DNA of 64,000 nt from Escherichia coli (lineage in GTDB: Bacteria > Pseudomonadota > Gammaproteobacteria > Enterobacterales > Enterobacteriaceae). The notes under the pieces are model-generated. The model saw nothing but the letters and a program-made list of their open reading frames with translations, was not told the DNA's origin and did not search any database. Of the stretch, positions 47,753 to 54,625 are shown piece after piece (the first letter of the stretch is position 1; each line of letters starts with the position of its first letter). Location of the stretch: NCBI RefSeq assembly GCF_003334405.1, contig NZ_QOWM01000007.1; one strand, 5' to 3'. The position numbers were made by a program, and so were the translations under genes.

Positions 47753-48566
47753 TGACCAAATTCTCAGTGGTTGTCGCAGGCGGTGGAAGCACCTTTACGC
47801 CAGGCATCGTGTTGATGCTCCTGGCGAATCAGGACCGTTTCCCGCTTCGTGCACTGAAATTTTATGATAACGATGGTGCGCGGCAGGAAGTGATTGCCGA
47901 AGCCTGTAAAGTCATCCTTAAAGAAAAAGCGCCGGACATTGCGTTTAGTTACACCACCGATCCTGAAGTGGCATTCAGCGACGTTGATTTTGTCATGGCG
48001 CACATCCGCGTCGGCAAATACCCGATGCGCGAACTGGATGAAAAAATCCCGCTGCGCCACGGCGTTGTTGGTCAGGAAACTTGCGGACCCGGCGGAATAG
48101 CGTACGGCATGCGTTCCATTGGCGGCGTCCTGGAACTGGTGGATTATATGGAAAAATATTCACCAAATGCCTGGATGCTCAACTACTCCAACCCGGCAGC
48201 CATTGTCGCAGAAGCCACGCGTCGTCTGCGCCCGAATGCGAAAATCCTCAACATCTGTGACATGCCAATCGGTATTGAAAGCCGGATGGCGCAAATTGTT
48301 GGGCTGCAAGATCGCAAACAGATGCGCGTGCGCTACTACGGCCTGAACCACTGGTGGTCGGCGATATCCCGCAGTTTCAGAAAGGGTTAATGAGTCAGCA
48401 AGTGGCGGTGGAAAAACTGGTCGTGGACGCCTGGGAACAGCGTTCATATCAGCACCTGTGGCAGGCGATTACGTTGTCGAAAACGGTACCGAGCGCCTCG
48501 GTCGCCAAAGCTATTCTGGATGAGTTGCTGGAGGCCAACAAAGCGTACTGGCCAGAGTTACGTTAA
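47752..48566 (+). pseudogene. glvG: glvG remnant: 6-phospho-alpha-glucosidase (GH4) with internal deletion and frame break
   Basis: N-terminal 212-aa frame (47752..48390, Rossmann [12 protein letters not shown]) and C-terminal 70-aa frame (48354..48566) in different frames; about 815 bp total, far short of a typical GH4 gene (~440 aa as I recall). Confidence 0.8.
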
Positions 48567-49456
48567 TTGTGTGGACTGGCATCCGTTGGGTGCTGGTCCG
48601 TATTCTTTAGCACGGCTGACGGCGCATAACCAAATTTATGTTTAAAGGCTTTGCTGAAATGAAAGGAGTCGAAGAAGTTGAGCGTATCAGCGACTTCGCC
48701 AACCGAGTTTCCTTGTTGCTTTAATAGCGATAGCGCCAGATCCAGACGCGCATCGAGGTAATATTCTTTCGGCGTCTTGCCGGTATAGCGTAAAAACAGA
48801 CGACGCAACCAGGCTTCGCTACAGGGGATCGTGGCAGCCATATCAGCTACGCTCCAGCGTTGTTGCAGACTGGCATGTAAAGTGGCAATTAATTTTTCAA
48901 TTTGCCGCCGTTGTGGATCTTTTTTACCATCTGCGTACATAAGACAAATCCACTGATAAATAATTTTCGTCAGAAAAGCGACTGCCAGATTATTTTTTAT
49001 TGCTTCTGGTGAAGTTATTAACTCAGCAACTTCGGTGAGTTCCTGATTATAAATTTCGCCATTATAAATAACGCTTTGCTGACCAACGGGAATATCCATC
49101 ATACTGGTGGGGGTAAATTCCATCCAGTACTGTTCCCAGACTAAACCTTCACAGTGATAAGAGTGAATATCCATTGGCTTTAAGAATATAATACAGTTGC
49201 CATGCAGTGTTATTTGTTCGCCATTCTTTAAAAGAATTTTCCCACATCCTTGTACGGTATACACCGCAACCCATGAGTTGGCGATAAGCGGTTTCTTCTT
49301 GTCCCGCGGCCAGATCACCCGGTAATGCTCGTCGGCGTAGGTATGCCAGAGCGAGATCAGAGAAATTCCGCTGGAGATCACATTTTCGTTAATCAATAAG
49401 GGAATATTGTACGGAGTTTCGTTTTTTACATCTGAACTTTGCAATTTTCCATTCAT
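48563..49456 (-). CDS. yidL: AraC-family transcriptional regulator YidL
   Basis: ATG at 49456 ([21 protein letters not shown]...) with GGAGGG upstream; 297 aa; C-terminal AraC HTH. Confidence 0.88.
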
Positions 49457-49622
49457 TTTAATATCCCTCCGGCGAATTATGCTCACAACCTGAACTTAAC
49501 AGAAAACAATCCGTTCAGGGATACGACGTTTGTATTTTAAGAATCTGACTGCCTGACCCGACGCATTTTACCTCTCCCTATATTCATGCGTCCGGGACAT
49601 AAACATAAATAAGGGCTATGAG

Positions 49623-53431: not shown

Positions 53432-53779
53432 ATGAAAATTTCCCGCCTCGGAGAAGCGCCTGATTACCGCTTCTCGCTGGCTAATGAGCGTACTTTTCTG
53501 GCGTGGATCCGTACTGCACTAGGATTTCTGGCGGCGGGGGTTGGGCTTGATCAACTTGCGCCAGATTTCGCCACGCCCGTCATTCGCGAACTGCTGGCGT
53601 TGTTGTTGTGTCTGTTTTCCGGCGGGTTAGCGATGTATGGCTACTTGCGCTGGTTACGCAATGAAAAAGCGATGCGTCTGAAAGAGGACCTGCCCTACAC
53701 CAACAGCTTATTAATCATTAGCTTAATATTGATGGTCGTGGCGGTGATCGTTATGGGACTGGTGTTGTATGCCGGATAG
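53432..53779 (+). CDS. yidH: Inner membrane protein YidH (DUF202)
   Basis: 115 aa; motif ERTFLAWIRT. Confidence 0.9.
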   Translation: MKISRLGEAPDYRFSLANERTFLAWIRTALGFLAAGVGLDQLAPDFATPVIRELLALLLCLFSGGLAMYGYLRWLRNEKAMRLKEDLPYTNSLLIISLILMVVAVIVMGLVLYAG

Positions 53780-54131
53780 CCGCAAAGCCAGACGCATTGC
53801 CGACCCAGGACTGCAGCCGGAGCGCACATCACTGGCGTGGTTTCGTACCATGCTGGGCTACGGCGCGTTGATGGCGTTGGCTATCAAACACAACTGGCAC
53901 CAGGCGGGCATGTTATTCTGGATTTCGATTGGCATTCTCGCCATCGTGGCGCTGATCCTCTGGCACTACACCCGTAATCGCAATTTAATGGATGTCACGA
54001 ATAGCGATTTTTCCCAATTTCACGTAGTCCGTGACAAATTTTTGATCTCCCTCGCGGTGTTATCTCTCGCAATACTGTTTGCTGTAACGCATATACATCA
54101 ACTTATCGTATTTATTGAGAGAGTCGCATGA
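53769..54131 (+). CDS. yidG: Inner membrane protein YidG (DUF202-like paralog of YidH)
   Basis: 120 aa; motif ERTSLAWFRT; overlaps yidH by 11 nt. Confidence 0.9.
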   Translation: MPDSRKARRIADPGLQPERTSLAWFRTMLGYGALMALAIKHNWHQAGMLFWISIGILAIVALILWHYTRNRNLMDVTNSDFSQFHVVRDKFLISLAVLSLAILFAVTHIHQLIVFIERVA

Positions 54132-54625
54132 CAGGAAGTCAGGTCATTGATGCTGAAGAGGACAGGCATAAACTGGTTGTAGAGTACAAGGATGCTCTGC
54201 AACCTGCCGATTTTTATCACAATTTCAAACAGCGGGGCATCCGCTCCGTACAGCTCATTCCCTATCTTGAATTTGATGACCGGGGCGATCTGACGGCCGC
54301 TTCGGTGACAGCAGAGCTGTGGGGGAAATTTTTAATTGCCCTGTTCGAGTGTTGGGTGCGGGCAGATATCAGTCGTATCTCGATTGAGCTTTTTGACGCC
54401 ACCTTACAAAAATGGTGTGGCAGCGAAAACCCGCAACCGCGCTGTGACTGCCAGGCGTGCGACTGGCATCGCCTGTGCCCGCACGCTCGGCAGGAGACGC
54501 CAGACAGCGTGCTTTGTGCGGGCTATCAGGCGTTTTATTCTTACTCCGCACCGCATATGCGGGTGATGCGTGATCTGATAAAGCAGCATCGTTCTCCCAT
54601 GGAGCTGATGACGATGCTGCGGTGA
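54128..54625 (+). CDS. yidF: Cys-rich SPASM-like protein YidF (sulfatase-maturase C-terminal-like)
   Basis: 165 aa; cysteine cluster WCGSENPQPRCDCQACDWHRLCPHA; no CxxxCxxC radical-SAM motif. Confidence 0.88.
   Translation: MTGSQVIDAEEDRHKLVVEYKDALQPADFYHNFKQRGIRSVQLIPYLEFDDRGDLTAASVTAELWGKFLIALFECWVRADISRISIELFDATLQKWCGSENPQPRCDCQACDWHRLCPHARQETPDSVLCAGYQAFYSYSAPHMRVMRDLIKQHRSPMELMTMLR

Follow-up and report, generated by a model that had tools for sequence, protein, structure and literature searches.

A small protein derived from an anaerobic sulfatase maturase in the yid sulfatase locus of Escherichia coli

Introduction

In Escherichia coli, the gene pairs aslA-aslB and ydeN-ydeM each encode a Cys-type sulfatase beside its own anaerobic sulfatase-maturating enzyme (anSME). 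The anSMEs (AtsB/AslB/ChuR type; TIGR03942) are radical S-adenosylmethionine (SAM) proteins of approximately 370 residues, and structures of the Clostridium perfringens enzyme anSMEcpe are available (PDB 4K36-4K39). In this study, we describe the locus yidL-yidK-yidJ-yidI-yidH-yidG-yidF, located at positions 48563–54625 of a 64,000-nucleotide stretch of E. coli DNA (the window; assembly GCF_003334405.1, contig NZ_QOWM01000007.1), and its last gene, yidF. The sulfatase gene of this locus, yidJ, resembles aslA and ydeN in that its product is of the Cys type. It differs in that YidJ lacks a signal peptide and has an importer as its partner, which suggests cytoplasmic desulfation. Two DUF202 genes stand between yidJ and the maturase position, and the maturase of the E. 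coli yid locus is eroded.

The eroded maturase is YidF. Like an anSME, YidF keeps the cysteines of the second auxiliary iron-sulfur cluster (Aux II) and the C-terminal helices, but it has 165 residues and lacks the CX3CX2C motif, the SAM-binding core and the site of the first auxiliary cluster (Aux I). A SPASM domain reduced to a single auxiliary cluster site is known from the Twitch-domain radical-SAM enzymes (PMC5715301). These enzymes keep the Aux I side, lack the CX2CX5CX3C motif and are active, whereas in YidF it is the Aux II side that is kept and the radical-SAM core that is gone. The two DUF202 proteins also have a described relative. Nearly the whole of YidH can be aligned with Vtc1 of the yeast vacuolar transporter chaperone (VTC) complex (7YTJ, 8I6V, 9UMG), and both are DUF202 proteins; however, YidH and YidG are proteins of approximately 115–120 residues encoded by a gene pair, with no polyphosphate polymerase or SPX partner.

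We consider it likely that the locus encodes an inducible import-and-desulfation pathway, in which the dedicated radical-SAM maturase was eroded in Escherichia to a non-catalytic small protein that is still selected. The gene names were already known, and the resemblance of YidF to anSMEs is implicit in the current annotation. The following points appear to be new: YidF as a derivative of an extant full-length maturase minus three in-frame segments, the recurrence of this reduction across lineages, the purifying selection on the Aux II half, and YidJ as a native client of another formylglycine-forming system.

Results

YidF Is Derived from the anSME Family

The gene yidF (54128–54625, plus strand) encodes a protein derived from an anaerobic sulfatase maturase by several in-frame deletions. 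Residues 106–117 of YidF (CDCQACDWHRLC) have the pattern C-x-C-x2-C-x5-C. A regular-expression search found no C-x3-C-x2-C radical-SAM motif anywhere in the protein. Both features had been given in a preliminary description of this DNA, and both were confirmed here. YidF matched the anSME model TIGR03942 of NCBIfam with E = 5e-21, in agreement with the anSME similarity proposed earlier; the score of 75.1 bits is below the cutoff of 349.45, and the match spans only model positions from approximately 160 onward. A Pfam scan of YidF gave no match at all, neither to SPASM (PF13186) nor to Radical_SAM (PF04055). The homology is visible only with full-length anSME models and PDB sequences, not with Pfam.

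In a PDB sequence search, YidF aligned to anSMEcpe in two blocks, residues 175–246 and 314–370, and relative to this enzyme it lacks approximately 170 N-terminal and 65 internal residues. Residues 1–9 of YidF (54128–54154) retain the original N-terminus, as shown by the alignment (MTGSQVIDA vs MTGCQVMAK in the full-length orthologues). Residues 16–99 (54173–54424) are what is left of the radical-SAM barrel, from its C-terminal part, and correspond to the first anSMEcpe block. Residues 106–130 (54443–54517) contain the cysteine cluster C108, C111, C117 and C130, and residues 131–165 (54518–54622) form the C-terminal helices with the tail APHMRVMRDLIKQHRSPMELM, which is near-invariant by substitution counts.

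The Aux I ligands of anSMEcpe are C255, C261, C276 and C330, and its Aux II ligands are C317, C320, C326 and C348 (PMC5715301). In the alignment, the four cysteines of the YidF cluster correspond, in order, to the four Aux II ligands. All equivalents of the Aux I and radical-SAM ligands are deleted, and only the four Aux II cysteines are left. YidF has CX2CX5C, and the X3C that completes the SPASM motif CX2CX5CX3C is deleted, leaving it without the seven-cysteine motif of the SPASM domain (PF13186/TIGR04085). The stretch of the full-length protein that Pfam scores as SPASM (residues 254–312) lies largely inside a deletion (residues 242–300). The earlier label of a "SPASM-only" protein is inexact, in that there is no Pfam SPASM domain and approximately 85 barrel residues are kept. 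By the alignments, YidF consists of the last part of the barrel (these approximately 85 residues), the Aux II third of SPASM and the C-terminal helices.

The AlphaFold2 (AF2) model of YidF, built from 62 related sequences, had a predicted local distance difference test score (pLDDT) of 82.5 and a predicted template modelling score (pTM) of 0.80. The model was confident at residues 11–100 and 131–165, with pLDDT >90 across the barrel remnant. In a Foldseek search with this model, the only significant PDB matches were the anSMEcpe chains 4k36–4k39 (E ~5e-6, TMq 0.64). YidF descends from the anSME family, because it matches TIGR03942 significantly, has syntenic full-length orthologues and matches these chains in structure. 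Lacking the radical-SAM cluster, the SAM-binding core and the Aux I ligands, YidF would be unable to perform radical-SAM chemistry. Because the radical-SAM site is absent, no conversion of Cys or Ser to formylglycine is expected from YidF alone. The product name "radical SAM protein", which the Prokaryotic Genome Annotation Pipeline (PGAP) gives to the 165-residue YidF across E. coli genomes, is misleading, as there is no radical-SAM core.

The literature on yidF, yidJ, yidK, yidH/yidG and DUF202 was searched, and no functional study was found. One mention of "YidF" was rejected as a misprint for YdiF. A table entry reports that YidF overexpression raises D-serine resistance (PMC12363166). The D-serine genes dsdA-dsdX-dsdC directly follow yidF in Citrobacter and Leclercia (L002 8544–12389; L004 8504–12294), and in E. 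kobei a dsdA-like (PALP) gene follows yidG (L087 6708–8027). The resistance entry and this neighbourhood could be a coincidence or a link.

Full-Length Maturases Occupy the yidF Position in Other Genera

The YidF homologues in the protein collection were mostly short (162–178 residues, down to 42% identity) and came from Escherichia, Citrobacter, Superficieibacter, Leclercia, Silvania and Klebsiella. For the locus survey, one genome was taken per species, giving 77 loci, which were annotated by tblastn and open reading frame (ORF) extraction. A gene of approximately 370 codons with a CX3CX2C motif followed yidH-yidG in at least 30 loci from at least 8 genera. The carriers in Citrobacter were C. 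werkmanii, C. braakii, C. sedlakii, C. amalonaticus and C. youngae ATCC 29220. The others were Kluyvera, Trabulsiella, Atlantibacter, Pluralibacter, Kosakonia, several Enterobacter species and Leclercia sp. 29361.

The full-length maturase starts with MTGC, and its start overlaps or abuts the yidG stop codon in most loci (e.g., L029, L047 and L082). Two full-length orthologues exceeded the TIGR03942 cutoff of 349, with 483.9 bits for C. werkmanii (L029, gene at 9530–10642) and 473.0 bits for L052. The C. werkmanii protein has the Pfam domains Radical_SAM at 12–173 and SPASM at 254–312. A locus from a metagenome-assembled genome (MAG; L006, 99% identical to Atlantibacter) has the order AraC-SSF-sulfatase-DUF202-DUF202 followed by a maturase gene. 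This gene starts MTGCHVMAKPASSRCNLRCRYCFY, has a full SPASM region and is complete when an "NN" assembly gap is allowed for. The full-length anSMEs at the yidF position from Citrobacter to Leclercia (484 bits vs 349) thus confirm the proposal that yidF is the remnant of a maturase, and the comparison across Enterobacteriaceae showed that orthologous loci do carry a full-length maturase.

Most genomes with a full-length maturase have yidL-yidK-yidJ just upstream, a gap of approximately 100 bp between yidJ and yidH, and no yidI. This arrangement argues for yidL | yidK-yidJ-yidH-yidG-anSME as the probable ancestral order. The intact maturase was associated with yidJ (odds ratio 5.6, Fisher p = 0.002, uncorrected for phylogeny). 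The gene was full-length in 21 loci with yidJ and in 9 without it, and reduced in 10 loci with yidJ and in 24 without it. This association fits a functional link between the maturase and YidJ.

In-Frame Deletions and Repeated Reduction

E. coli YidF was aligned to the full-length protein of C. werkmanii to map the deletions. The first deletion removed residues 10–151 of the full-length protein (142 residues), which held the radical-SAM cluster ligands C15, C19 and C22 together with the SAM-binding core. The second removed residues 242–300 (59 residues), with the three Aux I cysteines C246, C252 and C267. The third, located after C117 of YidF, removed residues 319–322 (4 residues, HGDC), including the fourth Aux I ligand, C322. 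All of these deletions are in frame.

Other lineages have similar but non-identical deletions, the first running from 7–10 to 147–154 and the second from 244–252 to 297–301 in full-length numbering. Intermediate forms were also found: a protein of 192 residues in C. amalonaticus ku-bf3 in which the cysteine motif is kept, a metagenomic protein of 213 residues, and a Pluralibacter MAG protein of 249 residues. The short forms of Leclercia and Silvania have clade-specific indels and a C-terminal extension common to the full-length proteins of Leclercia sp. 29361 and Enterobacter JUb54, and they cluster with their own full-length relatives (bootstrap 80). These indels and this clustering point to independent reductions in at least two lineages. 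A single origin of all short forms was rejected for Leclercia/Silvania on the same grounds. The deeper branching among the remaining short forms was not resolved in the tree.

Decay of the locus took different courses in two further species. In the E. albertii type strain NBRC 107761 (L023 2784–4745), yidK and yidJ have been deleted, yidL is reduced to its last 60 codons and yidF is frameshifted, with yidI, yidH and yidG intact. Other E. albertii strains have an intact 165-residue YidF (P0010). In Citrobacter koseri (L088 6001–7810), yidLKJ is present, the yidH ORF has 141 residues, yidG is truncated to 82 residues, and the maturase ORF has 338 residues with a late start.

Selection on the Short Form

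The dN/dS values were calculated by the Nei-Gojobori method, with E. coli K-12 compared with four other Escherichia lineages. The dN/dS of YidF was 0.12–0.14 at a dS of approximately 0.75. The 165-residue form is common to all compared Escherichia, and therefore this divergence accrued in the short state. The neighbouring genes were more constrained (YidH 0.01–0.04, YidG 0.04–0.12, YidJ 0.03–0.05). The median dN/dS of short yidF was 0.16 in Citrobacter/Salmonella, 0.20 in Superficieibacter, 0.32 in Leclercia/Silvania and 0.36 in Klebsiella/Raoultella, and that of the full-length gene was 0.08 in Citrobacter and 0.10 in Kluyvera. Across the five short-form clades (dN/dS 0.12–0.36), nonsynonymous changes were far under the neutral share (binomial p 1e-4 to 8e-15). 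Short yidF is under purifying selection.

The last 31 codons of yidF showed 0–3 nonsynonymous vs 8–10 synonymous differences in Escherichia pairs at dS ≥0.5. Few nonsynonymous and many synonymous differences indicate that the constraint acts on the protein and not on the DNA. The Aux II cysteines were invariant or nearly so across 62 sequences. At ≥95% identity, yidF was present in 5421 of 5426 complete E. coli genomes.

These data bear on whether yidF is a decaying pseudogene without function, whose ORF persists by chance or whose deletions are recent. The gene has been reduced more than once, it is frameshifted in some genomes and completely lost in others, all of its catalytic motifs are gone, and the constraint on the short form is 1.5–4 times weaker than that on the full-length gene. 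Against this, dN/dS is far below 1 in five separate short-form clades, the Escherichia divergence lies entirely within the 165-residue architecture, synonymous changes predominate in the tail, every deletion is in frame, and the gene is kept in nearly all E. coli genomes. We regard loss of function as unlikely. The data fit a dispensable yet constrained small protein, not a neutrally decaying pseudogene.

YidL, YidK, YidJ and the Supply of Formylglycine

The gene yidL (48563–49456, minus strand; PGAP name yidL) encodes an AraC/XylS-type regulator and is divergent from yidK. Its ORF can be extended to 49486 with a GTG start. The C-terminal helix-turn-helix region of YidL matched AraC, RhaS and GbdR models (E 1e-13 to 1e-15). 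The interval 49457–49622 between the two divergent genes is a putative control region by its position. The gene yidK (49623–51338, plus strand) encodes a solute:sodium symporter (SSF) that passed the family cutoffs (NF007790, 856.6 vs 401 bits; TIGR00813, 417 vs 184). The closest solved relatives of YidK are Na+/sugar transporters, namely vSGLT (2xq2/3dh4, E 1e-53) and human SGLT1/2, with E values from 1e-53 to 1e-40.

The gene yidJ (51335–52828, plus strand) overlaps yidK by 4 bp (ATGA), as described earlier. Its product carries the signature CTPARAGLFTG, also noted earlier, with CTPAR at residues 52–56 and the predicted formylglycine site at C52. YidJ matched arylsulfatase and choline-sulfatase models (E 1e-59 to 1e-64) and 40 S1 sulfatase structures at E <1e-20, and PF00884 is recorded on its orthologues. 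With this fold and a (C/S)-x-(P/A)-x-R motif near the N-terminus, YidJ belongs by sequence to the type I (S1) sulfatases. The closest solved relatives are carbohydrate and choline sulfatases (E ~1e-46). All scores against named equivalog models were under their cutoffs; given this and the distance of the solved relatives, no substrate can be assigned.

Residue 2 of YidJ aligns to residues 25–27 of secreted PDB homologues, leaving no room for a signal peptide. YidJ begins directly at the sulfatase fold and is therefore predicted to be cytoplasmic, consistent with an importer gene just upstream. The preliminary description had proposed import and desulfation of a sulfated compound. A cytoplasmic YidJ and a YidK similar to sugar transporters make a sulfated, sugar-like solute reasonable; the compound itself cannot be named.

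The signature CTPARAGLFTG was identical in 31 of 31 YidJ orthologues, including those adjoining a reduced maturase. Short yidF adjoins a strongly conserved yidJ in Escherichia, Superficieibacter and S. arizonae. The set yidH-yidG-yidF(short) occurs without yidLKJ in the Citrobacter freundii group, Leclercia, Silvania, Klebsiella and Raoultella. These genomes, and the conservation of YidJ in loci with an eroded maturase, weaken the implied dependence of YidJ on YidF. E. coli K-12 encodes AslB and YdeM, which are 46% and 44% identical to the full-length yidF-type maturase. Passages in PMC6189696 and PMC8379841, both citing Benjdia et al. 2007, refer to a further formylglycine-forming activity in E. 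coli whose enzyme is there given as unidentified. With YidF lacking a radical-SAM core and YidJ strongly conserved, YidJ is probably matured by another system. Its formylglycine would then come from AslB, YdeM or this further E. coli system, of which YidJ would be a native client.

YidH, YidG and yidI

The genes yidH (53432–53779) and yidG (53769–54131) are both on the plus strand and overlap by 11 bp. PF02656 (DUF202) is annotated on clusters of E. coli YidH and, in orthologous loci, on yidH as well as yidG, and YidG is identified as the second DUF202 membrane protein by its ORF, its PGAP name and these loci. YidH, a Vtc1-like three-helix membrane protein, matched the yeast Vtc1 chains 9umg, 8i6v and 7ytj with residues 14–109 (E 0.0025–0.005); for YidG, there was no significant PDB sequence match. 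In a linked AF2 model, YidH and YidG each show three long helices, as in DUF202/Vtc1-like proteins. YidH was a hit in a D-alanine exporter screen, but its test for D-alanine transport was negative (PMC10299036). The gene yidI (52875–53324, minus strand) encodes a small membrane protein, gave no family match in the profile search, and lies between yidJ and yidH. It was found only in Escherichia, S. enterica arizonae and a few Citrobacter loci; in most genera, yidJ and yidH are approximately 100 bp apart. This comparison of loci suggests that yidI was inserted later and interrupted the ancestral operon.

Within the gene set, it is the yidHG pair that persists most. In every examined locus with a yidF-type gene, this gene stands directly after yidG, and its start overlaps or abuts the yidG stop in most of them, including E. 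coli (4 bp). YidF, whether full-length or short, could therefore be a cytoplasmic partner of YidH/YidG that is independent of the sulfatase, and the retention of its C-terminal half would thereby be explained. In many genera, the yidHG-yidF set is kept where yidLKJ is absent, and the homology of YidH to the channel-forming membrane domain of Vtc1 is also in favour of such a role. However, S. enterica and E. kobei have yidHG without any yidF. We had considered that the conserved tail might be specific to DUF202-linked maturases, and this was refuted, as Bacteroidales anSMEs with no DUF202 genes beside them have a tail like it, and the tail is thus a general anSME feature. An AF2 model of glycine-serine (GS)-linked YidH-YidG-YidF with a 28-row paired alignment (pTM 0.41, pLDDT 59.7) gave no assembly of good confidence; it was a weak test and was counted for neither side. 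A role of this kind seems rather improbable to us.

Genomic Setting

The ORF list of 46.5–57 kb gave the order yidL(−) / yidK-yidJ(+) / yidI(−) / yidH-yidG-yidF(+). The ORFs and family models agree with the gene content described earlier, namely a divergent AraC-type yidL, an SSF yidK, a Cys-type sulfatase yidJ and a DUF202 pair. The locus matched 5422 of 5426 complete E. coli genomes at 95–100% identity, with the PGAP names yidL/K/J/I/H/G/F. It is a core chromosomal locus of E. coli. A promoter scan of 52700–54800 found no sigma-70-like site and is uninformative on transcription units.

The gene emrD lies directly beyond yidF in convergent orientation. The two stop codons are 7 bp apart (54623–54635), and therefore the terminator of either gene must sit within the coding region of the other. 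A "yidF terminator" serves as an E. coli test case in a 2026 preprint. The interval 55900–56950 beyond emrD holds the small genes ysdE, tisB, which encodes a type I toxin, and ivbL, the leader of ilvB; ilvB itself lies at 56955. All of these are usual in E. coli and were read from the annotation of the matching record. On the other side of the locus, glvG (47752–48566) is split into ORFs of 212 and 70 residues and is labelled "frameshifted" by PGAP. Its intact counterpart in other genera (L007, L008, L087) encodes a 6-phospho-alpha-glucosidase of glycoside hydrolase family 4 (GH4; 440 residues). The split glvG is a pseudogene of a known type and adjoins a phosphotransferase system (PTS) gene (45875–47752).

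Discussion

The pathway that we consider likely would work as follows. YidL would control the divergent yidK-yidJ genes. YidK, an SGLT-like Na+ symporter, would import a small sulfated solute that is probably sugar-like. YidJ would strip the sulfate in the cytoplasm after its C52 had been converted to formylglycine. The last gene of the ancestral operon would have encoded the dedicated radical-SAM/SPASM maturase, translationally coupled to yidG. In Escherichia, this maturase gene persists as yidF, reduced to its start, the end of the barrel, the four Aux II ligands and the C-terminal helices, and either a paralogue (AslB or YdeM) or the unassigned E. coli system would mature YidJ. The relic would still be translated as a constrained small protein, possibly binding a single [4Fe-4S] cluster.

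Several observations weigh against this explanation. Nine loci have a full-length maturase with no yidLKJ within 10 kb, which indicates that the link between the maturase and YidJ is non-exclusive. The yidF-type gene is frameshifted in the E. albertii type strain, in one Leclercia genome and in one Enterobacter genome, and broken copies were also found in Pluralibacter gergoviae, Trabulsiella odontotermitis 01 and Kluyvera genomosp. 3. It is entirely lost, with yidH-yidG kept, in S. enterica (L086) and E. kobei (L087). This repeated decay suggests that the gene is dispensable. The cysteine loop is the fastest-evolving part of YidF (dN 0.26) and has low AF2 confidence, and C117 is replaced in some Citrobacter short forms, which have other cysteines nearby. 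The literature search also found no experiment on YidF, YidJ or YidK.

The preliminary description had offered a stand-alone iron-sulfur (Fe-S) module as the other possible nature of YidF. Purifying selection and the four Aux II ligands agree with it, and the persistence of short yidF without yidLKJ does not. In its broadest form, the YidF-type mini-proteins would be functional stand-alone Aux-II-type [4Fe-4S] carriers that arose several times from the dedicated maturase when the same two segments were lost convergently. Their part in E. coli would be to help activate YidJ, either relaying electrons or holding the substrate for AslB, YdeM or the unassigned system, or else they would have a new role with YidH/YidG. 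We give this broad form only an outside chance. That YidF is such a module acting in YidJ maturation with one of these systems, relaying electrons or holding the sulfatase motif, is very improbable: exactly four Aux II ligands are kept under selection beside a conserved yidJ in Escherichia, Superficieibacter and S. arizonae, and E. coli has formylglycine activity without an assigned enzyme, but many genomes keep short yidF and yidHG without yidLKJ, Fe-S binding of YidF is so far predicted only, in a loop that evolves fast and is poorly modelled, and we know of no precedent for a split anSME.

Erosion of a dedicated maturase to a selected, non-catalytic protein has consequences for annotation and for experiments. 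The name "radical SAM protein" on YidF would need correction in essentially every complete E. coli genome. The intact operons of Citrobacter werkmanii, C. braakii, Atlantibacter and Kluyvera are suited to direct testing and offer a route to the substrate of YidK/YidJ and to complementation in E. coli. YidJ, conserved in E. coli without its own maturase, may be a native substrate of a formylglycine-forming system and would provide an experimental handle on the question of formylglycine formation in E. coli. Overall, the yid locus is instructive as an example of enzyme erosion, but it does not represent a new type of system. It shows a radical-SAM/SPASM enzyme that has been cut back in nature to its Aux II half and remains under selection, which bears on how an auxiliary-cluster domain may fold and function alone.

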